NCBI GenBank assembly: GCA_048886685.1
Contig: JBHLKM010000018.1
Coordinates: 1-64,000 of the forward strand
From: Candidatus Hodarchaeota archaeon
GTDB taxonomy: Archaea; Asgardarchaeota; Lokiarchaeia; Sigyniarchaeales; SOKP01
Direction of reading: 5' to 3'
Length of the DNA stretch: 64,000 bases
Shown one piece after another: positions 12,492-35,863 of this stretch (positions are counted from its first letter, which is position 1; each line of letters opens with the position of its first letter). Position numbers and translations under genes: made by a program. Below the pieces are notes generated by a model. The model was not told where the DNA came from and ran no database searches. It saw only the letters and a program-made list of their open reading frames with translations.

Positions 12492-13757
12492 TCAGAGTAC
12501 TTTTATTAATATTTCAGATATATCTAATATATTATATTTCTCTTTTTCTTGTTCTTTTAAACCATATGCTAAACCTAACTCACAAAGAGGACATGCAGAT
12601 ATAATTGTATTTGCTCCTGTTTCCTTTAATTCATTTACGCGATTCTGAGCTTCCTTAATAGCTAATTCTCTATCTGCCCAGTGAGCTGTACCGCTCCAAC
12701 CACAACAGTGTACAAATTCTTTATTATAAATTGGTTCGACAAGTTCTAAGCCTTCAATACGATTGAGGATATTTCTTATTGATTCAGTATCATTTAAATT
12801 TCGTGCAATGAGACAAGGATCATGAATCGTAATCCTATTTAATCCTTCTGGAGATCGCTTAGTGATTTTTAATTTTCCATCATAAACCAATTTCGCAAAA
12901 AATTTAGTAATGTGCAAAATTTCTTTATCTATTATAATACCAGCTTTCTTATATCTGTTTGATAAAGTTAATATACATCCAGGACAGTCTGATATAATAA
13001 TCTTGGCTCCTGTAGATTCAATAAGTTCTTTATTCTTATTTGCGAACTCTTTAGCAGTTTCTATATCTCTTATATTAAAAGCAGGTCCGCCACAACACAC
13101 TTTCTCGTCCAAATTGGTAGAAAATTTTATTCCAGCAGCTTTTAAAATTGCTATATTTGCTTTAACAACTTCTGGAAATTTCATTGACTCACAACCAATG
13201 TAATAAAACACATCATCCTTTCCATCAGTTTCAACATTTTCTATTCCGTTTTCTTTATAAGTATTGAATATATCATAACCTTCTATTGTATTAGACATTT
13301 TCAATTTTTCAATTTGTTCTTTACAGAAATCTGGCATAAATCCTTTAGCGTTGATATCATCTCTTACAGTTTCAAGTATTGATACAACAGAAAAGTCAAA
13401 GGGGCACCACAACTTACAAGATTCTTCATTCGTGCATTTATACATCAATTTGACAAATTCAGAATCAGTATAATCAATTTTCCCCATAGTTAAATAATAT
13501 CCAATTTTAGATTTATAAGCGGGGCTCATAGTCTCAGTTAGAGATGCTTGCAATGTTCCACAATCGAATCTACACATATTTGGACACAACATACATTTTA
13601 TTAAATCATCCACATTGGCATTTAGATCACCTTCTGGAAAGAAGTTTTTCTTTCTTTGCCTAAGATTTTTCATTAATATTGATCTGGTTTCTCTATCAGC
13701 CCTTTGAAGTAACGGAACCATCCATTTATATTTATTTAAAGTCTCCTCTATACCCAT
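12492..13757 (-). CDS. Fe-S protein with CCG domains (GlpC/HdrD-like)
   Basis: CMLCPNMCRFDC and CTNEESCKLWCP clusters; two CCG domains (VCCGG...DCPGC; HDPC...HCCGW...ACPLC). Confidence 0.85.
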   Translation of the reverse strand: MGIEETLNKYKWMVPLLQRADRETRSILMKNLRQRKKNFFPEGDLNANVDDLIKCMLCPNMCRFDCGTLQASLTETMSPAYKSKIGYYLTMGKIDYTDSEFVKLMYKCTNEESCKLWCPFDFSVVSILETVRDDINAKGFMPDFCKEQIEKLKMSNTIEGYDIFNTYKENGIENVETDGKDDVFYYIGCESMKFPEVVKANIAILKAAGIKFSTNLDEKVCCGGPAFNIRDIETAKEFANKNKELIESTGAKIIISDCPGCILTLSNRYKKAGIIIDKEILHITKFFAKLVYDGKLKITKRSPEGLNRITIHDPCLIARNLNDTESIRNILNRIEGLELVEPIYNKEFVHCCGWSGTAHWADRELAIKEAQNRVNELKETGANTIISACPLCELGLAYGLKEQEKEKYNILDISEILIKVL

Positions 13758-15236
13758 TTAAATCTCACCCCTCTTCCAAGCTTCAACATAAATCTTGCCA
13801 GGATTTAAAATATTATTAGGATCAAGAACCTTCTTAAATTGTCTTAAAATATTCATCGCATTGCCCCATTCATAGTTCATCCAACGAGATCTATTAAGAC
13901 CAATCCCATGATGATGAGCAATGGAACCTCCTGCGTCTAATACAGCTTTAATAGTTGTGTCCCAGCATTCTTGATAAAACTTTAAATCGGAGCTTCCTCT
14001 AGGTGGCACCCCACCAAATGAAAAGTAAATTCCAACTCCATTTGGGTAAAAGTGAGATACATGAGCAGTAATCATTAGGATTCCCTTGAATTGATTCATT
14101 TTTTCGAGAACATGATGGTAAACTTCCGCCGCATTATCCCATAAAGATGCTACTTCAAGAGTATCGAATACGATTTTATAAGGAGGCATTGAGGAAGTTT
14201 CGGTCACTCGAAATCTTGTTTCAAACCAATGTTCTACAGGATGCTCACCGCATTCTACTCCTGAATTTCTTTCACATTTGTCCCTTGTAATTGAATCCTC
14301 TAAATCAACTAGCTTTGAATTTCCTTCACAGATGAAAATGGTCATAACTTTATCTGTGGCATTCTTAACATCAGGAAAATGTCGGGCTGTTTCAAATTTA
14401 TCATAAATTCTTACTACAGCAGGATAAATTTGTTCTCTTAAAATCTGCCTTACAGCATCAAATGATTTCTCAATTGAAGGAAAAGCATATGAAATTAAAG
14501 CTCTTTTTTCTGGGTAAGGCCAAATTTTTAAGGTTGCTTTAGTAACTATACCCAGTGTTCCTTCTCCTCCAATGAATAGTTTATCAAGTTGGGGGCCAGT
14601 AGATGCTCTCGCAATTGTTTTAAAATTTATGACTTCACCTTGTGGTAATACAATTTCCATGCCCAATACAATATCTTCAATTTTCCCATATTTTGTGCTG
14701 AATTGACCTGCAGCTCGATGTGCAATCCAACCACCTAAAGAGGAAGTATATAAAGATTGGGGAATGTGACCAGAAGTGTATCCCTTGGCATTTAGATATC
14801 TCTCTAAATTCATGCCATTAATCCCAGCTTCAGCAGTGACAGTTAGGTTTTTATCATTAATTGTTATTATTTTATTGAATTTCTTCATATCAATGATAAT
14901 TCCCCCATAAATAGGTATAGCGCCCCCAACTACCCCAGATCCTTCACCATAAGGTATTACTGGAATTTTTTCTTGATTTGCTAGTGTTAAGATTTCACTA
15001 ATTTGTTCTACAGTTTCAGGCCATGTAATTAAATCAGGAAGTCCTGCAATTTTACCTTCTATTTCCCAATTAAATGATATTAATGATGAGTCTTTAGTAT
15101 AGGCTAATAAATCTATTTCTTTAGCAGATACATTGTTTTCTCCAACAATTTTACTTAATTTATTTTTAATCTCTAATTTGTTTTTAATGATAGCGCGATT
15201 ATCTTTATAGATTAATTCAAAATCTTCTAAGTCCAT
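13758..15236 (-). CDS. FAD-linked oxidoreductase, VAO/PCMH family, alkyl-DHAP-synthase (AGPS/YgcU)-like
   Basis: PYGEGSGVVGG, GHIPQSLYTSSLGGWIAHRAAGQFSTKYGKIED, GGEGTLGIVT, HVSHFY..GVGIYF, HHHGIG, DPNNILNPGK. Confidence 0.88.
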   Translation of the reverse strand: MDLEDFELIYKDNRAIIKNKLEIKNKLSKIVGENNVSAKEIDLLAYTKDSSLISFNWEIEGKIAGLPDLITWPETVEQISEILTLANQEKIPVIPYGEGSGVVGGAIPIYGGIIIDMKKFNKIITINDKNLTVTAEAGINGMNLERYLNAKGYTSGHIPQSLYTSSLGGWIAHRAAGQFSTKYGKIEDIVLGMEIVLPQGEVINFKTIARASTGPQLDKLFIGGEGTLGIVTKATLKIWPYPEKRALISYAFPSIEKSFDAVRQILREQIYPAVVRIYDKFETARHFPDVKNATDKVMTIFICEGNSKLVDLEDSITRDKCERNSGVECGEHPVEHWFETRFRVTETSSMPPYKIVFDTLEVASLWDNAAEVYHHVLEKMNQFKGILMITAHVSHFYPNGVGIYFSFGGVPPRGSSDLKFYQECWDTTIKAVLDAGGSIAHHHGIGLNRSRWMNYEWGNAMNILRQFKKVLDPNNILNPGKIYVEAWKRGEI

Positions 15237-25173: not shown

Positions 25174-26532
25174 TTATTGAGTAAATAAGTTCATAAAAGG
25201 AGTTAATTTTTCTTTAATATCTTCAATATTCTCCCCGATTTTCTTAAACCGAATAATAACAGTAGGTTTTCTAAGTTCATTCCTAATTTTATTTTTCAGT
25301 AATTCATAACAATTTGAAGAATTTGTATAACAATCAATTACTTGATTGAAGACAACACCATTAAAGCCCAATTTTTTAGAATACTCTAAATATGAATTAA
25401 CTAGCGCATCACAGTTCTTTAAACAATGAATTCCCTTCTTTGAAGCATTCAAAAGAAAGTTGCCATAATCCATGATCGGATCTGAATCTTTGGAAACGGG
25501 AATTTCTTCCAATAACCCTAAAATATCCCAATCTGCATAAATAGTTCTTCCCCCATATTTATAAATGAGTTCATGAATTTCTGGTTCCCATCCATTAAAA
25601 ATAGGGGAAACCAGTAATCGGGGAGTATTTGAAACATCCATACCTATACCCTTCTTCACTCTTTCTCTCATTTCTTTAACGAGCTGACTCATATTTTCGA
25701 GGTATCTCTGGGCATTCGAATTATAATCTTGGAATGAAATTGTAAGAAGGCCTAAAATCTCTGCGAATGTAGCTGGATTACAAGGATAAAAATCGGACGT
25801 ACTGATTTCATGCAGAATTGTTTTATAATATCGTTTTACTTGATTCCCTATACGAAATTGTTTTTTTAAACTATTGTCCGAAACAATATTTCCTGTGATG
25901 TTTTCTAACTCAGTTATAGCTTTATCTATACTATCTTTAATAAGTTCTAAAGATTTTTCTTGATTTCCCTGCTGATTAGAGGGAAGATCTACCCAAATTT
26001 GGTTTGGAATTATCGTTTTTAAAGATTCTGAGTATTTATTCCACTCACTACACCTTATTCTGAATTTCAAATTAGCATCAATATTTTCGTATTGAGATTT
26101 ATGCATACCATAAATTGCATTTACCCCATAACACAAATTAGGTTTCTCATCAATTACTCCTAAATCATACATTTCATTATATTTCTGATTAATTGTATTT
26201 AACACATCGTTTATAATTGAGTCAACAATTTTCAAAAAATCTAATTGACGAGCAATACCTAAGAGATTCGTAGTAATATTCCACCCAAATAAACTTTTTG
26301 CAGTATTGAGTGCTAGCAAATATAGATTAATTTTAAATTTCTCCATACGAATTGGAAACACAGGAATAGAATCTGCGGCATAAACTAAGTCTGGAAATCC
26401 TAAAGCAACAGAAATAAGCTTCTTTTTTTCTTTAGTCTTTTTCTTTATTAAATAATCTCTCCCAGTCAGGAAATTGTAAGCAATTTTCAACACTGAGGTA
26501 AAACTTACAACATCATCAGCGTATATGCTCAT
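25174..26532 (-). CDS. 2-hydroxyacyl-CoA dehydratase-family subunit, paralog of 34505..35863
   Basis: Shares IAYNFLTGRDYL, KKLISVAL.F.DLVYA, PVFPIRM, SDFYPCNPATF.EIL and GIGMDVS with the 34.5-kb gene; Cys in LCYG, RCS.W and IDCY. Confidence 0.8.
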   Translation of the reverse strand: MSIYADDVVSFTSVLKIAYNFLTGRDYLIKKKTKEKKKLISVALGFPDLVYAADSIPVFPIRMEKFKINLYLLALNTAKSLFGWNITTNLLGIARQLDFLKIVDSIINDVLNTINQKYNEMYDLGVIDEKPNLCYGVNAIYGMHKSQYENIDANLKFRIRCSEWNKYSESLKTIIPNQIWVDLPSNQQGNQEKSLELIKDSIDKAITELENITGNIVSDNSLKKQFRIGNQVKRYYKTILHEISTSDFYPCNPATFAEILGLLTISFQDYNSNAQRYLENMSQLVKEMRERVKKGIGMDVSNTPRLLVSPIFNGWEPEIHELIYKYGGRTIYADWDILGLLEEIPVSKDSDPIMDYGNFLLNASKKGIHCLKNCDALVNSYLEYSKKLGFNGVVFNQVIDCYTNSSNCYELLKNKIRNELRKPTVIIRFKKIGENIEDIKEKLTPFMNLFTQ

Positions 26533-27008
26533 TATAATATATAATGCATTAATTTCAAATAATAATATGAAACACTAAACTCTACATTTTAAATTTAATC
26601 ATAAAAGTGTATTAAAATTTATGAGAATTAAAAGATATACTCGAATTTTTTAAAATTTGACGTGAATAGAATAAAATTATCATTTAAAGGGTCGATTTAA
26701 AGAAATATCAAAAATTTACAATCATTTACCGAAAAAATTAAATATCTTGATTTATATTAATGAATTAGAATTAAAAATGATTTGATATCTATTTACCGGA
26801 ATTGTTCCTTTAAATTAGTTTGAATATAAAATAAAATATTCAAGTAGTACCTAAATATAAAGTTAGTTGTTCCTATTTGGGAAATTTTAACTTGTATTAA
26901 TAGAATTAGTCAATTTAAAGGTTAAAATTAAAAAAAATTAAAAAAATTCTGCGAAGAAAGTTATAAAATTAAATCCAAATAATAATGTAAAAATTTATAG
27001 GTGATAGA

Positions 27009-27275
27009 ATGAACAAAGACGAAAGTTTTTTAAAACGAGGATATGAACTTGCTTCAGAGATGAAACTCCCATTAATAGATGAAAGGGTACAAGTTAATGC
27101 CAAATTCAAGGCAAGTAATGCAACTACTATAGTTAAATTCACTTTCGATGAAGATGAATCAATTATACGAGGTTTTCTAGGATTAGCAGAATATTTTCAT
27201 TCAGTAATAATAAAATCAAAAAATAAATTTTACATTCCTCATGACCATAAACTGTTTATTTTAGTAACTGTCTAA
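27009..27275 (+). CDS. Small hypothetical protein
   Basis: 88 aa with an AGGTGA SD just before the ATG. Confidence 0.7.
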   Translation: MNKDESFLKRGYELASEMKLPLIDERVQVNAKFKASNATTIVKFTFDEDESIIRGFLGLAEYFHSVIIKSKNKFYIPHDHKLFILVTV

Positions 27276-27379
27276 TTTTCTTATTAAATCTATCCAATTT
27301 TAAATGTTTTAGGAAAATTGGTATTTATATCATTAATAAAAAATGATTACAGTTAAAATAAGAAATAAATCTGTAGATT

Positions 27380-27601
27380 TTAAGAGATTTTTTTTACTAA
27401 AATCTGTTTAGATGCGTTGATAATTTTAAGTTTAGGCATTTCTTGGATCTTTTTTATTAGTTCAATTTGGTTTTTAATAGTATTCCAATTTGATTTAGCT
27501 TGTTGAGAGATATCGCTTATTGTATGATAATTGCCATCTCCTAAAGCCTTATAAATATTTTCAACTATCTTCCACGTGGTTTTCCTTTGAGTTTGACTTA
27601 T
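27380..27601 (-). CDS. Uncalled small winged-helix/HTH DNA-binding protein (probable ATA start)
   Basis: Manual translation (I/M)SQTQRKTTWKIVENIYKALGDGNYHTISDISQQAKSNWNTIKNQIELIKKIQEMPKLKIINASKQILVKKIS*; TISDISQQAKSNWNTIK is HTH-like; GGTGGA upstream; no in-frame ATG/GTG/TTG at the N-terminus. Confidence 0.65.
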   Translation of the reverse strand: MSQTQRKTTWKIVENIYKALGDGNYHTISDISQQAKSNWNTIKNQIELIKKIQEMPKLKIINASKQILVKKIS

Positions 27602-27810
27602 CGAAATATTTATCCACCATATGATTATATTTGTTTTATAAATAAAAAATAATAATTCCTTAATATATAAATTGTATATAAAAATATATAAGTTTACTTA
27701 TTTTTTGAACAAATATCTTTAAATAAAAGGTTATCTATTTAATTAAATAGTAAGATTATTTCTATTTAAATGATCATTATACTTAAATATTAATCATTTC
27801 TATAATTATA

Positions 27811-27963
27811 TAGTGTTGATTATGTATATTTGTATAACCACTCAGAAAGTAGCAAATATGCCTATTTTTAAATTACAGAAATCGACTTGGGGAAATCCTA
27901 TAAGTCGATTTTGTGAATAATTGAGAAATAACACAACAAAAACTCCTTATTGGAGGTAATTTT
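27811..27963 (+). promoter_or_regulatory. Putative structured 5' leader with an SD-occluding hairpin upstream of the B12-protein operon
   Basis: Perfect 10-bp stem AAATCGACTT (27879-88)/AAGTCGATTT (27902-11); CTCC (27943-46) pairs with the SD GGAG (27952-55); TTAAATA TATA-like box at 27783. Confidence 0.5.
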
Positions 27964-29706
27964 ATGATAAAAATTAATAATAGTATCAAAAAGGAAAAAA
28001 GAGAAAAGATTTTAACCGCATGTATTGGTCAATGTGTACATGTAGCAGGAACCTATAATTTTATGAATATTGCAACCCAATTGGGATTTGAATGTTTATT
28101 TTTAGGCCCTGCAACATCTAATTCTGTAATTATTGACAAATTAAAAGTATTTAAACCAGATATTTTAGGGCTTAGTTATCGACTAACACCCTCTACTCTC
28201 AGACCGATACTTCAAGAATTTAAAGAAAATTATGTAGAATTGAAAGAGAAACCTCAACAACTATTTTTTGCAGGTACTCCGGAAGTTGTTAGAGTTGCCA
28301 AAAAGTTTAATCTTTTCCATGAGTACTTTATCGGGGGAGAATCAAAGCATAAGATAATCTCGATTTTAAGAAAAGATTTAGCAGCTCAAGAAGAAAAGAT
28401 AAAAGTTCCTTTTGATTTAATTTCTCGGATAAAATGGAAAAACCCTTTTCCTATAATAAGAGCCCATTTTGGATTACCAAGTATGGAAGATACTGTAAAT
28501 GGGATAAAAAAAATCGCAGATGCCGAGATATTAGATATAATCTCAATCGCTCCTGATCAGAATACTCAAGCAAATTATTTTCATCCTAAGAATCAAGTCA
28601 AAGAGCTATCTGGGGCGGGAGGGGTTCCTATCAGGACTAAGGAAGATTTTTTGGAATTACATAGTGCTAGATTAACGGGAAATTATCCTTTGTTGAGAAT
28701 TTATGCAGGCACTCGTGACTTTATAAGGTTAGCTGAATTATACCGAGATACTATACATAATGCTTGGGCTGCTATACCGATTTTTTGGTTTAATCAAATG
28801 GATGGAAGAGGGCCATTAACGTTAAAACAATCCATAAAACGACATTTAGAAGTAATAAAATGGCATGGTGAAAACAACGTCCCCGTCGAAATCAATGATT
28901 CTCATCACTGGAGTTTAAGAGATGCTCCAGATGCTATTGCTGTAGCTGATATGTATTTAAGTGGTATAATAGCTAAAGGATTGGGAGTAAAACATTTTAT
29001 CGCCCAATATATGTTTAATACACCGCCTTCAAGTTCACTTGATATGGATTTAGCTAAAATTCTAGCAAAAAATGAATTACTTCATACTTTAATTGACAAG
29101 AAATTTTCAGTAATTAAACAAGTAAGGACGGGATTAGCCAGTTTTCCATTGGATTTAAGTAGAGCTAAAGGTCAATTGGCAACAGCAACTATAGTTCAAC
29201 TAGCAATAAAACCAGATATTGTTCATGTAGTTAGTTATTCAGAAGCTGCTCACGCTGCTCTTCCAGAAGATGTAATTGAAAGCTGTAAAATTGTTGATCA
29301 AGTTATAAATAGGATTTATTCAAGCGAAATTAATGTCGTTAATGAAAAAATATTAAGAAGAAAAGCAGAATTAATTAACCAGGCGAAGTGGATAATTGAT
29401 TCAATACCGTATCTAGCTAAGAATAAAAAGGAAATTCAAAATCCATATATTAATTATAAGGTTTTAAATCGTCTCGTAAAATATGGAATATTTGATGCAC
29501 CTCATTTAGTAAACAATAAATATGCTCAAGGTAAAATTAGAACTAAAATAATTAATGGTGGGTGCTACTCCTGGGATGATTCAAGACAGAAAAAATATGA
29601 TGAAATAGAAAGAGTTAAAGACATTATCATTAATCTCCAAGGTTTACAGTTGATTAAATTATTAAATAAAAGAGAAAAATCTATATTTGGGGTGATATAT
29701 AAATGA
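27964..29706 (+). CDS. Cobalamin-binding domain fused to a putative glutamate-mutase-like TIM-barrel domain
   Basis: N-terminal Rossmann B12 domain (CVHVAG variant of DxHxxG, FLGPA, GLSYRL, FAGT) plus a large catalytic-looking domain (PDQN, GAGGVP, DGRGP, HHW, MFNTP, HVVSYSEAAHAA). Confidence 0.75.
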   Translation: MIKINNSIKKEKREKILTACIGQCVHVAGTYNFMNIATQLGFECLFLGPATSNSVIIDKLKVFKPDILGLSYRLTPSTLRPILQEFKENYVELKEKPQQLFFAGTPEVVRVAKKFNLFHEYFIGGESKHKIISILRKDLAAQEEKIKVPFDLISRIKWKNPFPIIRAHFGLPSMEDTVNGIKKIADAEILDIISIAPDQNTQANYFHPKNQVKELSGAGGVPIRTKEDFLELHSARLTGNYPLLRIYAGTRDFIRLAELYRDTIHNAWAAIPIFWFNQMDGRGPLTLKQSIKRHLEVIKWHGENNVPVEINDSHHWSLRDAPDAIAVADMYLSGIIAKGLGVKHFIAQYMFNTPPSSSLDMDLAKILAKNELLHTLIDKKFSVIKQVRTGLASFPLDLSRAKGQLATATIVQLAIKPDIVHVVSYSEAAHAALPEDVIESCKIVDQVINRIYSSEINVVNEKILRRKAELINQAKWIIDSIPYLAKNKKEIQNPYINYKVLNRLVKYGIFDAPHLVNNKYAQGKIRTKIINGGCYSWDDSRQKKYDEIERVKDIIINLQGLQLIKLLNKREKSIFGVIYK

Positions 29707-30809
29707 AGTTTTGTATAATAGGAGCAGGAAATGGTGGTCGTGCATTCGCCGCATATCTTTCTTCCAGAGGACATAAAGTGAATCTCTATAATCGTTCATT
29801 TTCAAGAATCGTGGATATAAAGAAGAAAGGTGGAATTAAAGTGTCTGGAGAAATAAAAGGATTTTTTCGATGTAATTTGGTCACACAGAATTTAAAATTA
29901 GCAATAAGAGATGTTGATGTAATTTTAATAGTTGTCCCTGCTTCTGCACATAAAGAAATTGCTGATAAGATAGCAAAATATCTTTCTCCCGATCAAATAA
30001 TCCTATTAAATCCTGGAAGAACTTTTGGCGCTATTGAATTTCGACGTACAATTGAAAAAAAAGGTCTCTCATTTCCTATTTTCATTGCCGAAACTCAAAC
30101 ATTAATTTTTACATCAAGGCAACTAAAAAAGAATGGTGTAAAAATCCTTAGAATTAAAGATACTGTCGATCTTGCTGCATTTCCCGAAAAAGATACCTTC
30201 TTTGTATATGATACCTTAAAAGACGTATTTCCTCAGCTAAATGCTGTAGATGATTACCTAGAAATGACATTAAATAATATTGGAATGTTATTGCATCCAA
30301 CACTTTCATTATTAAATGCTGGTGCCATGGATTGTGGAAAAGAATTTAAATTTTATGCAGAGGGTGCAACCCGTCGTACATGTGAAGTCCTTGAAACTAT
30401 TCAGAATGAATTGAATAAAATATTTGAAATTTTGGGTTTCAAACTATTAAGATTTTGTAATTGGGCAAAAAAATCATATCATGTAAAAAAAAATCAGATC
30501 TACAATACTATTCAAAATATAAAAGCATATGAAAATATTAAAGCACCAAAAAAATTAATAACTAGATACTTTACCGAAGATGTCCCTACTGGACTTGTTC
30601 CCATCTCCTCTTTAGCAAAATTTTTAGGAGTTGAAACACCAATAATTGACTCTATAATAAATATCTCATCGATTTTATGTGGAATTAATTTCAAAAATGA
30701 AGGCAGAACTCTTGAAAAACTAGAAATTATAGATTTTATAAAAAAGAGAATAATAATTAAACAAGATTTAGATAAATTAGAGGAAATCTCAATAAAAACT
30801 ACTATTTAA
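29703..30809 (+). CDS. NAD(P)-dependent opine (octopine/nopaline) dehydrogenase family protein
   Basis: IGAGNGG Rossmann motif, LNPGRTFG, AETQT, NIGMLLHP, RYFTEDVPTGLVP; ATGA-overlap with the B12 gene. Confidence 0.9.
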   Translation: MKFCIIGAGNGGRAFAAYLSSRGHKVNLYNRSFSRIVDIKKKGGIKVSGEIKGFFRCNLVTQNLKLAIRDVDVILIVVPASAHKEIADKIAKYLSPDQIILLNPGRTFGAIEFRRTIEKKGLSFPIFIAETQTLIFTSRQLKKNGVKILRIKDTVDLAAFPEKDTFFVYDTLKDVFPQLNAVDDYLEMTLNNIGMLLHPTLSLLNAGAMDCGKEFKFYAEGATRRTCEVLETIQNELNKIFEILGFKLLRFCNWAKKSYHVKKNQIYNTIQNIKAYENIKAPKKLITRYFTEDVPTGLVPISSLAKFLGVETPIIDSIINISSILCGINFKNEGRTLEKLEIIDFIKKRIIIKQDLDKLEEISIKTTI

Positions 30810-30818
30810 TTTTATATC

Positions 30819-31781
30819 TTATTCCTTTTCAATTTCTTCTTTAGAGAATTTCTCCTTTATTTTTTCTTTAATATCTTCAATCATTATTCCTTGTAACTTC
30901 AGGAGTTTATTTACAAAAATTATTGAAGCAATAGAGATTCCGATAAGATAAAATATATTCATAGTCCATAGGAGATTTTCAATAGTGACATAAAGATCAA
31001 ATCTGAGGATAGGAGATAAAACTGCTATTAAGCCACTACAAATAATGGAAATAAGCAGAGCATATTTTTCATATATCTCGGGATCTTTATCAATGATAAA
31101 AACTTTTATCCAGAATAATAAACATACAAATGTTATAGGTGTAAAAATAAGGGTACCAATTGCAAAGGGAATCAAAAGATATATAGCAAATTTATGTCGC
31201 CAAACCTCTAGTAAATCTTTTAATGTCTTCTGGTCCTGTATCTGCTTTTTAGCATATTCCTTTCTGAATCCATAATACTTTTTTTTAATCCCTCGCCCAA
31301 CCTGTTTTGCACCTTTCTTAAATCTCTTAAAAAAACCCTGATCAGCTGCATCTTGAAATTCTTCTCTGATAATAGGGATAATATACAACGTTATCAATAA
31401 TGAGGCTATACCATAAATATATATGATTAAATCAAACACTAATCCAAATCCTTCTTGAGTTCCGCCCCATTCAAAATAGCTCGAAAATATAGCATATGTG
31501 GCATAAACAATTAAAACTATTGGAATCAAAATCTGGAATATGACAATATAATTTACAAATTTTTTATTTTTAGCCATCTTTTCTTTTGTTTTATCGAGAA
31601 GGATAAGAAAACCATTAGCAATGCTTAAGATCAATCCAAATCCCGAAAGAAATTTAACGATCCAGAAAAAAAATAAAAAACTGATAGATAAGATATTTAT
31701 GCTGAATAGAATGAAAAACATCAAAACAGTAGTTATAGCTAGCCCAATAATATAAAGAATAGTATAGTTTCTATCATCCAT
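30819..31781 (-). CDS. Hypothetical polytopic membrane protein with basic cytoplasmic loop
   Basis: About 7 hydrophobic segments; K/R-rich loop at about aa 140-195. Confidence 0.7.
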   Translation of the reverse strand: MDDRNYTILYIIGLAITTVLMFFILFSINILSISFLFFFWIVKFLSGFGLILSIANGFLILLDKTKEKMAKNKKFVNYIVIFQILIPIVLIVYATYAIFSSYFEWGGTQEGFGLVFDLIIYIYGIASLLITLYIIPIIREEFQDAADQGFFKRFKKGAKQVGRGIKKKYYGFRKEYAKKQIQDQKTLKDLLEVWRHKFAIYLLIPFAIGTLIFTPITFVCLLFWIKVFIIDKDPEIYEKYALLISIICSGLIAVLSPILRFDLYVTIENLLWTMNIFYLIGISIASIIFVNKLLKLQGIMIEDIKEKIKEKFSKEEIEKE

Positions 31782-31815: not shown

Positions 31816-32550
31816 TTATCCATGGTTTTTATTGTAAGAGCATAACCATAGAAAATTTTCAATAATTTCCTGCCCGATCATCCTTGTTTTGTTAGCAATT
31901 CGTTCATCAAATAAGCTTGGATGAAAATAGTAAGGATTGTGAGTTTCTGGGTGAAATTGAAGAGCAAAGATTGGTTGTTCAGTATGTCTCATATACTGAA
32001 CCATATTGTATCCTATTGTTCTAGAAGTACTGAGGATTTCAAAATTATTTTGAATATTGCAATCATTGGGAGAAATAAAGTCAAGGTGATGAACATTTAC
32101 GGGGATATTTTTTTGTGTTATTAATTCATCAGTTTTTTTAATTAAGATAAAAATAATTCTTCCTCCTAAACCAAGAATTCTCATACGACATATTTGAGCA
32201 CCAAAAGCATAGGCTACTAAATGAAATCCAAAACAAAGTGCAAGAATAGGTTTTTGATTGCTATTCTGAATTAATTCTAATTGAGAGTTAAATTTCCTTT
32301 TTAATCTCTCATCATAGTAAAAACTGGAAACATTCAATTCAGAGCCTGATAAAATTACTCCTTGATAATCCTTTACCATTTTTAATTTAAATTGAGTAAA
32401 ATGGATAGTTTTTAGCTCCAATTCCGCTATACAATCTTTTATGATAGTTTCGATTCTTGCTATTCGATCTGTTGGAAAACCTCGAGAATAATTGTCTATA
32501 AGAAGTATTTTATTTTGTTTATCATTTTCAGACAACTTTTCTTCAACCAT
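31816..32550 (-). CDS. Class I glutamine amidotransferase-like hydrolase
   Basis: LLIDNY, VILSGS, LALCFGFH (Cys), QFHPE (His-Glu) complete triad. Confidence 0.88.
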   Translation of the reverse strand: MVEEKLSENDKQNKILLIDNYSRGFPTDRIARIETIIKDCIAELELKTIHFTQFKLKMVKDYQGVILSGSELNVSSFYYDERLKRKFNSQLELIQNSNQKPILALCFGFHLVAYAFGAQICRMRILGLGGRIIFILIKKTDELITQKNIPVNVHHLDFISPNDCNIQNNFEILSTSRTIGYNMVQYMRHTEQPIFALQFHPETHNPYYFHPSLFDERIANKTRMIGQEIIENFLWLCSYNKNHG

Positions 32551-32567
32551 CTATCTCATCTAAACAC

Positions 32568-32927
32568 TTATGTAAATTTTTTAATTAAAATTTCAGAAGG
32601 ATAATAAGTAAATGCATCTAATTCTTTTCTATTATCCAATACTATTTTCACTAAAATTCTATGGTATAATTCTCCTTCCCCCTCGATTATATCGATTTGA
32701 GAGATAAGAACATGGTCTAAACCGTAATATATTTCACCGTTAACTCTAGAAGAATCATCTCGAATAATAAATGGAAATCCCAAAGAAGGAGGCGTCACTT
32801 TTCTATAATTAAATAGAGTAGCTTTGTCATACTTCAAACCTCTAAGGATATAATTTCGACTTTGCCCATGTTGTAATGTTCCATAGACAAAAAGATTGTA
32901 AAATTCACTCTTTATTTTCATTTCCAT
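32568..32927 (-). CDS. Gamma-glutamylcyclotransferase (AIG2/GGACT-like)
   Basis: LFVYGTL, VNGEIY, IDIIEGEGELYHR with catalytic Glu. Confidence 0.9.
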   Translation of the reverse strand: MEMKIKSEFYNLFVYGTLQHGQSRNYILRGLKYDKATLFNYRKVTPPSLGFPFIIRDDSSRVNGEIYYGLDHVLISQIDIIEGEGELYHRILVKIVLDNRKELDAFTYYPSEILIKKFT

Positions 32928-32948
32928 CCCAATTTTTCTTCTAAAAAA

Positions 32949-34412
32949 TTAACGAAAGAAATCACCAAACAATCTATCAAGTAAAGATTCTGATTCAGAT
33001 TGTACTCTTAACACATGATCATTTTCTCTTAATGGTATTTTGAGATTTTGAACAACAAGATTATTAATTACTTTTATCCCCGTGAAATTTGTTGCCATTC
33101 CATCTACTTCATCATAGCTAAAATTATATTTTGCTTCCAATGTTCCTCGAACTTGTGTACCGCTCTCAATCCTATAACGATTTCTATTTCGGTCAATTAC
33201 AATTCTTGGATCTATTAATTCTACCATCACATAAGTTTTACCTTGTTGTCTTAATTTCTCAATTTTTCTTGATTGATATTCAACATCAAGCTCTTGTTGA
33301 GACATTTCTAATTGAATTTTTTTTGTTGGTAGATTTTTTATCTGAATACCTAAATATTCTTGATATTTCTTAGTTTCTTCGATCCAAGTTGATATGCTTT
33401 TTTCTAATGATTCTTTTTCCCCATTCTCTCTCTGAAAAATTGCTCTTGTTCCATTTGCAATGGCATTTTCAAGATTAATCATATGATAAGGATCCTGCAA
33501 AATTTCTCCTGTTTTTTGAAGTTTCATCGCATGCAGAGCAGAAACACAACATAGATAGGCAATATCTATTAAATCTTCAGTATTATATTGTACATCAACC
33601 ACTCTAACTTCAATTCTATTCCGGGAAGGTAATTCATCATTATCATCACTAATATTTGTAAATGGACCCCTTGGTGTAATATCTACAAGACGTTCTCCTC
33701 GACTATTTGTAATGACCTTTTTAGAAAACTCGTCCTTTTCAAATCCTATTTTAAGTTTATATCTCATACGCCCATAATATCGCATTGGAACCAAAGTTGG
33801 ACGATTTTCAGGAATTTCTATTACTGCAAATCCGTTTGATTTGAGGACGCTACTATTAGCACATCGATTACTAGCAATATTATTTAAATTTCCCTTAAAA
33901 ATACGCGAATTTGCTGATATTCCTATTATTTCTGGAAGATAATTCCATAAATAATTATAAACCACTTTCATCTCTTCAGGAGTCATCAATCCTCCTTCTC
34001 TTTGAACAGAAACGTTAATATGGGTTCCAGAAATTGGATTTGGATCGCTCTGTACTGGATGAAGACTCTGAGCAAGGATTTTAACTCCAAGCTGTTTCGC
34101 TGCGTCTGTTAATAATTTTCTTCCTTCTATAACAGCTTGTAGTAAAGATTCTGGAGGGAGTGGTAGAGTGACATATTCTATTTGTGAAGGTGACGGTTCA
34201 GCATCTAGCCCTCGTATTTTAACTTGAAGTGAACTCAAAAAATTTTGATCTCTTTCCAGAATTTCTGCAGATTTTACCATTATATCATCCGCAACTTTAG
34301 CTAGAGTGCCATTTTTATTTATGATTAGAAATTCTTCCTCAATTCCGCATAATACTTGATAATCTTTATGTAGATCTTGGTCTAATTCTTTTGTTTTCTG
34401 GTGAAACCTCAT
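32949..34412 (-). CDS. Glutamate--cysteine ligase family 2-like carboxylate-amine ligase with C-terminal extension
   Basis: CGIEEEFLII, EPSPSQIEYVT, GTHINVS, ANS, NRIEVRVVD; about 120 extra C-terminal residues. Confidence 0.8.
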   Translation of the reverse strand: MRFHQKTKELDQDLHKDYQVLCGIEEEFLIINKNGTLAKVADDIMVKSAEILERDQNFLSSLQVKIRGLDAEPSPSQIEYVTLPLPPESLLQAVIEGRKLLTDAAKQLGVKILAQSLHPVQSDPNPISGTHINVSVQREGGLMTPEEMKVVYNYLWNYLPEIIGISANSRIFKGNLNNIASNRCANSSVLKSNGFAVIEIPENRPTLVPMRYYGRMRYKLKIGFEKDEFSKKVITNSRGERLVDITPRGPFTNISDDNDELPSRNRIEVRVVDVQYNTEDLIDIAYLCCVSALHAMKLQKTGEILQDPYHMINLENAIANGTRAIFQRENGEKESLEKSISTWIEETKKYQEYLGIQIKNLPTKKIQLEMSQQELDVEYQSRKIEKLRQQGKTYVMVELIDPRIVIDRNRNRYRIESGTQVRGTLEAKYNFSYDEVDGMATNFTGIKVINNLVVQNLKIPLRENDHVLRVQSESESLLDRLFGDFFR

Positions 34413-34504: not shown

Positions 34505-35863
34505 TCATTTAAACATTTCCATGAATGCACCTAGACGGGTCTTTACTTGTTCAACATTTTCCCCCATCTTATTGAAATTAAGTGCGATACTTGGTATTTC
34601 TAATTCTCGACGTAGTTTTTCTTTTAACATGGTATAACAATTCGAAATGGAATGGCATCCGAATACTTGGACAAAAACAAGTCCATCAGCATTTAAATTC
34701 TTAGCTAATCTCACGTAGGAATCTGTTAAAGTATTATTATCGCATCCAATACCATTTGAAGATACTTTCATTAAAAAATGGGCATAAGCTTCGATGGGAT
34801 CAGTCAAATTTGAAATAGGAATGTCCTCTAAAAATAATAATAAATCCCAATCCCCATATAAAACTCTTCCTCCTAATTCATAAATTATATCATGACACTT
34901 TGGTTCCCAACCACCAAACATAGGAGTAATTAGAATTTTAGGCATTTGTGAAACATCCATTCCAATCCCTTTTCTAATTCTCCCTCTCATTTCCTCCAAT
35001 AAAGAAGAGATGTTGTCTCTAAATCGGGTAGCATTGGAATTATAATCATGATAACTAATGTTTAATAAAGCAAGAATTTCACTAAAGGTTGCAGGATTGC
35101 AGGGATAAAAATCTGAGGCACTTATTTCATACATTATTTTTTTATAAGCTTGATGAATTTGGTTAGCTGTTCTAAAGTGGTCTCTTAATGCGTTATCAGT
35201 ATAATTATGGTTACTAATTTTTTCTAATTCATTTAACCCTTTAGCAATATTATCCATAAAAAGTTCCGTAGAATTACCTATATCTCTAGGAGGTATTTCA
35301 ATCCAAATTTGTTTAGAGGGATTACCTATTGCTTTTATTGACTCAAGATATTTATTCCAAGCACTACATCGTATAGTATAATTTAAGTTCGCATCACAAT
35401 TCTTCCCTTTTGATACATTCATTCCATAAAGCGATTTAACACCATAACAGAAATCAGTAGGGATACCACATTCCTCACCAAAATCATACATTTCATTATA
35501 CTTGTCATTTATAGTAGCAATAACATCTTCGATAATATTATCAACGGTTTGACTTATATCTTTAATCCCAAGATCTTTTACAAAACCCAAAAAGTTGGTA
35601 ACTCTATTCCAGCCAAATATATTAGATGCTGATCCCAAATATGTAAGATATTTGTGAATCTTGAATTCATGCATTCTAATTGGGAAGACTGGAATTAGAT
35701 CTGGAAATGCATAAACCAAATCTGAAAATGGTAAAGCAACCGAGATTAATTTCTTTTTTTCTCTGAACTTCTTTCTCTTGAGATAATCTCTTCCCGTTAA
35801 AAAATTATATGCTATTCTTAACACTGAAGAGAATCTAATCAATTCATCAGCAACTAAACTCAT
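34505..35863 (-). CDS. 2-hydroxyacyl-CoA dehydratase subunit (HgdA/FldB/BcrB-like)
   Basis: DFCYG, IRCSAW, ADGLVFVQVFGCHS, C-terminal QVKTRLGAFMEM; in a cluster with the second subunit and the activator. Confidence 0.85.
   Translation of the reverse strand: MSLVADELIRFSSVLRIAYNFLTGRDYLKRKKFREKKKLISVALPFSDLVYAFPDLIPVFPIRMHEFKIHKYLTYLGSASNIFGWNRVTNFLGFVKDLGIKDISQTVDNIIEDVIATINDKYNEMYDFGEECGIPTDFCYGVKSLYGMNVSKGKNCDANLNYTIRCSAWNKYLESIKAIGNPSKQIWIEIPPRDIGNSTELFMDNIAKGLNELEKISNHNYTDNALRDHFRTANQIHQAYKKIMYEISASDFYPCNPATFSEILALLNISYHDYNSNATRFRDNISSLLEEMRGRIRKGIGMDVSQMPKILITPMFGGWEPKCHDIIYELGGRVLYGDWDLLLFLEDIPISNLTDPIEAYAHFLMKVSSNGIGCDNNTLTDSYVRLAKNLNADGLVFVQVFGCHSISNCYTMLKEKLRRELEIPSIALNFNKMGENVEQVKTRLGAFMEMFK

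Follow-up and report, generated by a model that had tools for sequence, protein, structure and literature searches.

A putative B12-dependent mutase encoded together with an opine dehydrogenase in a Loki-type Asgard archaeon

In a 64,000-nucleotide stretch of an Asgard archaeal genome (Candidatus Hodarchaeota archaeon, assembly GCA_048886685.1, contig JBHLKM010000018.1, positions 1 to 64,000 of the forward strand; hereafter the window), two overlapping genes encode P0001, in which a cobalamin (B12)-binding domain is joined to a barrel resembling GlmE of glutamate mutase, and P0002, an opine dehydrogenase. Starting from the folds, motifs, strict pairing and dehydrogenase specificity residues observed here, we propose that P0001 and P0002 are consecutive enzymes of one small-molecule pathway. 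P0001 would be a single-chain, base-off/His-on radical carbon-skeleton mutase with fused sigma and epsilon parts, closest to GlmE and catalyzing a 1,2-shift on a substrate other than free glutamate. From pyruvate and an acidic amino acid (L-Asp, L-Glu or a relative of these), P0002 would form an N-(1-carboxyethyl) amino acid, and the pathway would run in the synthetic direction, yielding a rearranged (branched) acidic opine. In Loki-type archaea the operon lies behind a conserved, structured 5′ leader able to hide its ribosome-binding site. We assign the pathway proposal, taken as a whole, a probability of about one half.

Conservation of the gene pair

The mutase-like gene is an open reading frame (ORF) at 27,964–29,706 (+) that specifies a single chain of 580 residues; it has one match in the host genome and is therefore present as a single copy. 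The dehydrogenase gene (29,703–30,809, +; 368 residues) is intact and overlaps it by ATGA, such that the dehydrogenase start codon (29,703–29,705) is interleaved with the mutase stop codon (TGA, 29,704–29,706), and a GGGGTGA sequence lies 7–14 nt upstream of the dehydrogenase ATG. Within P0001, a cobalamin-binding Rossmann-type domain covers residues 12–137 (27,997–28,374, +), as located by VIA-align and by a sequence match to 4jgi. The His-ligand loop C24-V-H26-V-A-G29 (28,033–28,050, +) is aligned to the DlHdiG loop of 4jgi, and a GlmE-like TIM barrel with a C-terminal lobe, supported by VIA-align, Foldseek and hhalign, spans residues 146–550 (28,399–29,613, +). A preliminary description of this locus, made from the letters alone, had listed the fused B12 and barrel protein, the CVHVAG loop, the lack of CxxxCxxC, the ATGA overlap and the intact opine dehydrogenase, and each of these features is present. 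The nearest homologues of the P0001 gene come from metagenome-assembled genomes of Promethearchaeota, and the host genome is itself of the Loki-type Asgard (Promethearchaeota) kind. The arrangement is more than a chance observation, since the P0001 family comprises more than 7000 homologues in which C24, H26 and G29 are nearly invariant.

To survey the pairing, the dehydrogenase was searched by tblastn in 80 related loci from species-representative genomes, 74 of which had enough flanking sequence. In all 74 of these, a dehydrogenase gene was the same-strand neighbour of the mutase gene, and the remaining six end at a contig edge. In Loki-type archaea, as in Chloroflexota, it lies downstream of the mutase gene, whereas in Heimdall-type archaea it lies upstream. 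Four more bacterial loci, all of them distant, likewise have the two genes side by side. The suggestion that the two genes form a two-enzyme unit thus held up in the gene-neighbourhood survey, across two domains of life and in both gene orders. FastTree trees of the mutase and of the dehydrogenase resolved the same three well-supported groups, which fits inheritance as a unit. No other neighbouring gene was common to the Loki-type, Heimdall-type and Chloroflexota loci. The extras are specific to lineages: a major facilitator superfamily (MFS) transporter after the pair in 10 Loki-type loci and an alanine-racemase-fold pyridoxal phosphate (PLP) enzyme in 7, GNAT acetyltransferases in Chloroflexota, and biotin carboxylase genes in Heimdall-type archaea. 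Among the 150 best cluster representatives no mutase–dehydrogenase fusion was seen, with no search aimed at longer proteins having been made. The gene occurs in 113 of 300 Asgard genomes, in 38 of the 89 of high quality, and in 7 of 21 genomes of the host's genus.

The dehydrogenase and the direction of the pathway

P0002 scored 141.9 bits against Octopine_DH (PF02317; cut-off 30) and matched N-(1-D-carboxyethyl)-L-norvaline dehydrogenase (CENDH, 1bg6) with an E value of 2e-73. Its residues H198, R288 and D293 correspond to the catalytic H202, R292 and D297 of 1bg6 and are invariant in 22 partner dehydrogenases, bearing out the earlier assignment of an intact opine dehydrogenase. Also invariant in these 22 proteins are R106 and G194, whose counterparts in the Arthrobacter enzyme (ArODH) are A111 and N198. 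At the cofactor site, where ArODH has the NAD-type Asp34 and Asp36, P0002 has N30 and S32, with an invariant R31 between them.

The same set of changes is known from six hot-spring metagenomic opine dehydrogenases (mODHs), which prefer NADPH, pyruvate and L-Asp or L-Glu and also accept cysteate and homocysteate (Telek et al. 2024, Appl Microbiol Biotechnol 108:101). At ArODH position 111 all of the mODHs carry Arg, and at position 198 all carry Gly; a double exchange at these two positions switched the preference between L-Asp and L-Phe in both directions, and the listed cofactor-site changes are D34 to N or S and D36 to T, S or F (Telek et al. 2024). Their kcat/KM with L-Asp is low, at 0.04 per s per mM (Telek et al. 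2024). Motifs such as LNPGRTFGALEF are common to the published mODH sequences (Telek et al. 2024, supplement) and the consensus of the partner dehydrogenases. Judged by these residues and motifs, P0002 looks like an NADPH-dependent opine dehydrogenase for acidic amino acids. A role in pyruvate binding was considered for the R106 position (Gln118 of OcDH) but was not borne out by the literature; the mutagenesis of Telek et al. (2024) instead connects this position with the amino-acid side chain.

NADPH-type cofactor residues favour reductive condensation, and the settings in which the pair is found in bacteria add to this. A cyclic di-AMP (c-di-AMP) riboswitch (89.3 bits; cut-off 38) lies directly upstream of one bacterial dehydrogenase–mutase operon, and directly upstream of another is a gene for a GntR+TrkA_C regulator, which we take to be the architecture of BusR, a c-di-AMP-binding osmoprotectant regulator. 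In three bacterial loci the pair is embedded among surface-glycan genes, which include glycosyltransferases and a MurJ flippase. ATP-grasp ligases occur as fusions or as neighbours in some bacterial loci, and in one of them (L097) a mutase::ATP-grasp fusion is followed by a gene for a class-I amidotransferase/peptidase C26. Such surroundings suggest that the pair makes a product derived from an amino acid, which would be accumulated under osmotic stress or ligated to something else. Of the product types proposed in the preliminary description, an osmolyte gains indirect support, from bacterial c-di-AMP control only, and a metallophore gains none. In two Brevefilum (Chloroflexota) loci, S-adenosylmethionine (SAM) riboswitches are present a few hundred bases downstream of the pair (L044:9146-9252 and L061:7920-8024); they probably control the next gene and not the pair.

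The preliminary description had allowed for either making or degrading an opine. Breakdown or salvage would have an opine, taken from the environment or from a store, or a branched acidic amino acid isomerized by the mutase and then cleaved oxidatively to an ordinary amino acid and pyruvate. Opine dehydrogenases are reversible, and CENDH comes from a catabolic context, but the cofactor residues of P0002 are of the NADPH type. Known adenosylcobalamin mutases of anaerobes are mostly fermentative and the hosts are sediment amino-acid fermenters, yet the conserved neighbours of the pair include no lyase, no CoA-transferase and no further gene of downstream catabolism. The MFS transporter of the 10 Loki-type loci counts in favour of breakdown; the ATP-grasp ligases, glycan-assembly genes and c-di-AMP riboswitch associated with the bacterial pairs count against it. 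On balance the evidence leans toward making, and we consider degradation unlikely, at something like one chance among several.

The mutase-like protein

An AlphaFold2 model of P0001, built on 33 diverse family members, reached a mean pLDDT of 88.6. In Foldseek searches, which had been suggested as a check, the top match of the model was GlmE (1cb7_B and 6h9e_B; E 2e-17), followed by ornithine and lysine aminomutases and methylmalonyl-CoA mutases, upholding the mutase-like fold. Every high-ranking fold match was an adenosylcobalamin isomerase. With VIA-align, residues 147–550 superimposed on GlmE 6h9e_B with Z 30.2 and an rmsd of 3.0 over 373 residues, and on 1cb7_B with Z 30.0; the corresponding barrel Z scores were 29.1 for lysine aminomutase, 26.4 for ornithine aminomutase, 21.4 for methylmalonyl-CoA mutase and about 15 for dihydropteroate-synthase-like barrels. 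At the sequence level, Met_asp_mut_E (PF06368) matched residues 286–533 at 36.5 bits, above its cut-off of 26.6. By hhalign, the family profile matched an alignment of nine GlmE sequences (that of E. coli O157 and eight further homologues from plasmid records) with a probability of 96.5% and an E value of 1e-9 over 362 columns. Against a single GlmE sequence the probability was only 22%, with the same mapping for four of the five substrate residues considered below (all but R66). A profile of the P0001 family compared with PDB sequences reached B12 domains only and not the barrel. By its model, P0001 thus joins a B12 domain to a barrel that belongs to the adenosylcobalamin isomerase superfamily.

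Beneath the shared fold, the two sides of the active site differ from each other in what they retain. Residues R66, R100, R149, E171 and Y181 (C. cochlearium numbering) are those reported to bind glutamate in GlmE (Reitzer et al. 1999); their positions were checked against the 6h9e sequence. In P0001 they map to H168, Q202, Y247, A269 and D280, respectively, and none of the five is kept. Conserved arginines, R166 and R245, stand two residues before H168 and Y247 on the same strands. On the cofactor side, E330 and K326 of GlmE contact the adenosine ribose, a role that Gruber et al. (2001) reportedly gave to E330. In the hhalign alignment E330 maps to E427, which is conserved in at least 90% of members and may make the same contact, and K326 maps to V423. 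The FP.D..KA motif of GlmE is likewise kept in the P0001 family. As far as sequence can tell, the P0001 barrel appears to keep its cofactor side and to have its substrate side rebuilt.

These residues bear on a further alternative, in which P0001 is a true but diverged glutamate mutase that makes (2S,3S)-3-methylaspartate, which P0002 then condenses with pyruvate. GlmE is the best fold match and Met_asp_mut_E is above its cut-off, but all five substrate residues differ, and the equivalog model TIGR01503 gave 23.7 bits against a cut-off of 390.1. An acidic-type dehydrogenase that handles plain L-Asp poorly would fit a substituted aspartate as its native substrate; no methylaspartate ammonia-lyase and no separate GlmS or GlmL is found beside the pair, however, the S part being fused within P0001. 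An operon of GlmS, GlmL and methylaspartate ammonia-lyase is, by contrast, present in the loci of E. coli O157 and Rhizobium, and canonical GlmE was not found in the 150 Asgard genomes searched. We regard a diverged glutamate mutase as improbable.

Several of the plasmid records contain arrangements of their own. The gene annotated 'methylaspartate mutase subunit E' on a Roseibium aggregatum plasmid (L107, record 13163-15157) has about 664 codons, with a start far ahead of its match to GlmE, and may be a natural S–E fusion of the canonical enzyme. Two Streptomyces plasmids (L110 and L111) carry diverged 'methylaspartate mutase' genes, 27–30% identical to GlmE, flanked by a separate gene for a B12-binding protein and an asparagine synthetase A gene, which is another arrangement of a mutase with an amide-forming enzyme.

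Residues 12–137 of the model superimposed on the corrinoid protein 4jgi_A with Z 15.1 and an rmsd of 2.2 over 116 residues, and the sequence match to 4jgi had an E value of 1e-4; B12-binding (PF02310) gave 23.1 bits on residues 15–77, below its cut-off of 32.1. When CVHVAG is aligned with the DlHdiG loop of 4jgi, Cys24 falls at the Asp position. C24, H26, G29, the SYRL segment (the SxL motif; S71 and L74) and G104 (of the GG motif) are conserved in at least 90% of the 33 diverse Asgard and bacterial members. The Cys-for-Asp ligand motif noted at the outset is therefore real and family-wide, with CxHxxG in 140 of 169 full-length homologues collected. In a subgroup of proteins about 620 residues long, the loop in this position reads DxHxxG (DPHTEG or DAHTLG, for instance), ahead of the same SYRL, which shows that the Cys sits at the canonical Asp position and is a clade-wide change, not a local mutation. 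Two relatives with CxHxxG, P0147 and P0148, are fused to Pfam MutL (GlmL, the glutamate-mutase reactivase family); these fusions tie the family to adenosylcobalamin chemistry, and we infer that it uses this cofactor. The host can supply a cobalamin cofactor, its genome containing one CobA/BtuR-type adenosyltransferase match, three methylmalonyl-CoA-mutase-type genes and 18 B12-binding domains. That sole CobA/BtuR-type match (G000:C17:94889-95431, locus L089) is reported with one in-frame TAG.

Two other classes of cobalamin protein were considered. A radical-SAM or B12-radical SAM identity was ruled out, as a regular-expression search of P0001 found no CxxxCxxC motif; its cysteines are at positions 20, 24, 44, 441 and 534. 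The preliminary description would have been refuted if P0001 had proved to be a known methyltransferase corrinoid protein. The first strand of its B12 domain begins at residue 15, too near the N terminus for a helical cap to precede it, and with the isomerase barrel that follows, the protein is not of this kind. More broadly, P0001 could be a methylcobalamin methyl-transfer enzyme, as implied by the name 'methionine synthase' that NCBI gives to many family members. Its B12 domain is closest in sequence to methyltransferase corrinoid proteins (4jgi and MttC above GlmS) and the host genome is rich in corrinoid methyltransferase systems. This is countered by the missing N-terminal cap, by barrel Z scores of 20–30 to adenosylcobalamin isomerases versus about 15 for dihydropteroate-synthase/MeTr-like barrels, by the relatives fused to a mutase reactivase-like domain and by the lack of a match between P0001 and any NCBIfam methyltransferase model, and we judge methyl transfer very improbable. 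A vestigial or regulatory cobalamin domain beside B12-independent barrel chemistry, which the Asp-to-Cys change in most members and the low Pfam score might suggest, is similarly far-fetched given the strong conservation of His26, Gly29, SxL and GG across phyla, a Cys24 that is itself nearly invariant and not drifting, the existence of reactivase-like fusions and a host that uses corrinoids heavily.

Returning to the proposed sequence of radical mutase and acidic opine dehydrogenase, a number of observations weigh against it. With no glutamate-binding residue retained, the substrate is not readable from homology, and the native substrate of mODH-type enzymes may itself be other than Asp or Glu. 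The replaced Asp is the hydrogen-bond partner of the His ligand; Chen and Marsh are said to have found in 1997 that changing this Asp in glutamate mutase lowers activity, so that normal adenosylcobalamin catalysis is not assured in P0001. The subthreshold B12-binding score belongs here, as does the host genome, in which neither a MutL/GlmL-type reactivase (PF13941) nor a PduO-type adenosyltransferase was found. NADPH use and bacterial regulation bear on direction only indirectly, and the bacterial contexts are absent from the window. The distant relatives P0137 and P0147 have no dehydrogenase within 7 kb, and the patchy occurrence of the gene within the host's genus indicates an accessory function.

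For the proposed synthetic pathway, adenosylcobalamin use, substrate, step order, direction and physiological role are what we infer from the observed features. A slight preference goes to an order in which the dehydrogenase would act first and the mutase would then rearrange the opine, because the GlmE residue that holds the free amino group is Ala in P0001 and because the extra conserved Arg could hold a third carboxylate. In its boldest form, which we hold to be distinctly doubtful, the mutase would rearrange a secondary-amine opine with a Cys–His ligand pair to give an undescribed branched tricarboxylic amino acid, serving as an anionic compatible solute or surface-glycan decoration, and in the Loki-type loci a new riboswitch-like leader, a rare example among archaea, would govern the operon. 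We know of no adenosylcobalamin enzyme that uses a secondary-amine opine as substrate.

Leader, flanking genes and relation to known systems

The 320 nt upstream of the mutase start are 67–89% identical in about 20 Loki-type loci. They include a hairpin at 27,881–27,909 (+; arms 27,881–27,889 and 27,901–27,909) that shows covariation. Across 18 Loki-type loci, pairing holds in 92% of cells, and of the 9 pairs 5 vary in both partners. None of 500 shuffles attained the observed value, a control that overstates the significance because the leader sequences are related. Several of the pairs are G–U, which a DNA palindrome would not tolerate. Closer to the gene, a CTCC-loop-GGAGG hairpin (27,943–27,956, +) would sequester the Shine–Dalgarno sequence 8 nt before the ATG at 27,964. 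It is kept with variable loop length in related loci, and 94% of cells are paired over its 3 pairs. A TATA-like box, TATAATTATATAG (27,802–27,814, +), lies in alignment columns conserved in related loci and is presumed to be the promoter. No Rfam family, including cobalamin and c-di-AMP riboswitches, matched positions 26,500–28,100 at E values up to 1, and a covariance model of the leader matched only the leader itself in the host genome, giving no clue to a regulon. The structured leader of the preliminary description is thus upheld in part, by the conserved, covarying hairpin, its G–U pairs and the second, sequestering hairpin, but not by membership in an Rfam family. We consider the leader of the Loki-type loci a candidate cis-regulatory RNA in archaea.

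Upstream and divergent is a 73-codon ORF with no canonical start codon (27,383–27,601, −). By tblastn it is conserved at the same relative place in 14 Loki-type loci with 61–83% amino acid identity, and it has no significant match to a Pfam or helix-turn-helix (HTH) family. The regulator of its own that had been attributed to the pair therefore finds a candidate in this conserved ORF, but not one recognizable as an HTH protein. In most loci (the same place in L002-L041) the ORF is without ATG, GTG or TTG, and in several there is an in-frame TGA within a conserved TGGTGA just ahead of its conserved part, as if GGTGA served as a ribosome site and translation began behind it at a non-canonical start (ATT or ATA).

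Downstream of the pair, a gene at 30,819–31,781 (−) encodes a hydrophobic, multi-pass membrane protein of 320 residues that matches no Pfam family. Ten Loki-type loci have homologues of it beside the pair, in either orientation. It is a possible accessory protein or transporter for the pair. Farther on, 31,816–34,412 (−) contains genes for a class-I amidotransferase/peptidase C26, a GGACT protein and a GCS2-like ligase, found at the same relative place in 5–7 Loki-type loci. We treat a link between these amidotransferase and ligase genes and the pair, through amide ligation and hydrolysis of the product, as a lead. Orthology between this amidotransferase and that encoded after the mutase::ATP-grasp fusion of L097 was also considered and rejected, the two being 26% identical over 76 residues. 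Paralogous genes of 452 residues from the 2-hydroxyglutaryl-CoA dehydratase D-component family occur at 25,174–26,532 and 34,505–35,863 (−), and in 17 Loki-type loci one of them is found upstream of the pair, in divergent orientation.

To our knowledge, only about a dozen adenosylcobalamin isomerase reactions are known, and another is probably hidden in this family, which is widespread and has both its pocket rebuilt and its cobalt-ligand motif altered. The evidence from fold and motif speaks against the name 'methionine synthase' in database entries. For Asgard biology, the pair is an accessory trait, apparently inherited as a unit, with little bearing on eukaryogenesis.

The pairing has been described before. 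A new family of B12-dependent proteins was predicted next to PF02317 opine dehydrogenases in 2009 (Zhang, Rodionov, Gelfand and Gladyshev 2009, BMC Genomics 10:78), and in the same year Hore_09740/Hore_09750 of Halothermothrix orenii was described as an operon (Mavromatis et al. 2009). The pairing has been in print since then; we found no later paper that gives a function to the 2009 family and no paper that joins an opine dehydrogenase with cobalamin, adenosylcobalamin or a mutase, or glutamate mutase with Asgard metabolism, and one Thermoanaerobacter transcriptome paper mentions the dehydrogenase only. The statement in the preliminary description that no pathway with this pairing has been characterized agrees with the literature. 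What is new is the Asgard member, and to the published family we add a pocket that departs from glutamate mutase residue by residue, the link between the partner dehydrogenase and the mODH subfamily, and the conserved Loki-type leader. The in vitro substrate data for the partner (Telek et al. 2024) narrow the search to acidic amino acids and pyruvate, and make the 2009 orphan directly testable.

Five known systems can be set beside the pair. One is the 2009 family (Zhang et al. 2009), to which P0001 appears to belong by architecture and context. As in P0001, its members are proteins of about 560 residues with a distant N-terminal B12 domain, always by a PF02317 dehydrogenase; D-Ala-D-Ala-ligase-type (ATP-grasp) and asparagine-synthase genes are nearby in some genomes, and Chloroflexi are among the hosts. 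The 2009 papers list 11 bacteria and no archaea, and mention neither a kinship to glutamate mutase nor the Cys in place of Asp, the rebuilding of the pocket or the specificity of the dehydrogenase. On the dehydrogenase side, mODH-45 to mODH-582 (Telek et al. 2024) have the same Arg111/Gly198 pair, NADPH-type positions 34 and 36 and motifs as P0002, in a paper without genomic context or a B12 partner. ArODH/CENDH of Arthrobacter sp. 1C (1bg6) shares the catalytic His, Arg and Asp with P0002 but prefers hydrophobic amino acids and NADH.

On the mutase side, glutamate mutase (GlmS/GlmE with GlmL; EC 5.4.99.1, Clostridium cochlearium; 1cb7, 1ccw, 6h9e) resembles P0001 in its barrel fold, its base-off/His-on B12 domain, the FP.D..KA motif and a Glu that aligns with E330, and a GlmL/MutL-like domain is fused to some P0001 relatives. 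P0001 differs in having the B12 part fused N-terminally, in CxHxxG for DxHxxG and in an identity of only 17%, and its partner is an opine dehydrogenase where that of glutamate mutase is methylaspartate ammonia-lyase. The PLP- and adenosylcobalamin-dependent aminomutases (lysine 5,6-aminomutase KamDE and ornithine 4,5-aminomutase OraSE) have barrels nearly as similar to that of P0001 as GlmE. No invariant or near-invariant Lys for PLP is present in residues 1–140 of P0001 in the 33-member alignment, the sole near-invariant Lys being K365 in the barrel. OraE is likewise a barrel–B12 fusion, but with a domain order that is reversed in P0001. A single-chain adenosylcobalamin carbon-skeleton mutase acting on a dicarboxylate is found in Eubacterium barkeri, as 2-methyleneglutarate mutase.

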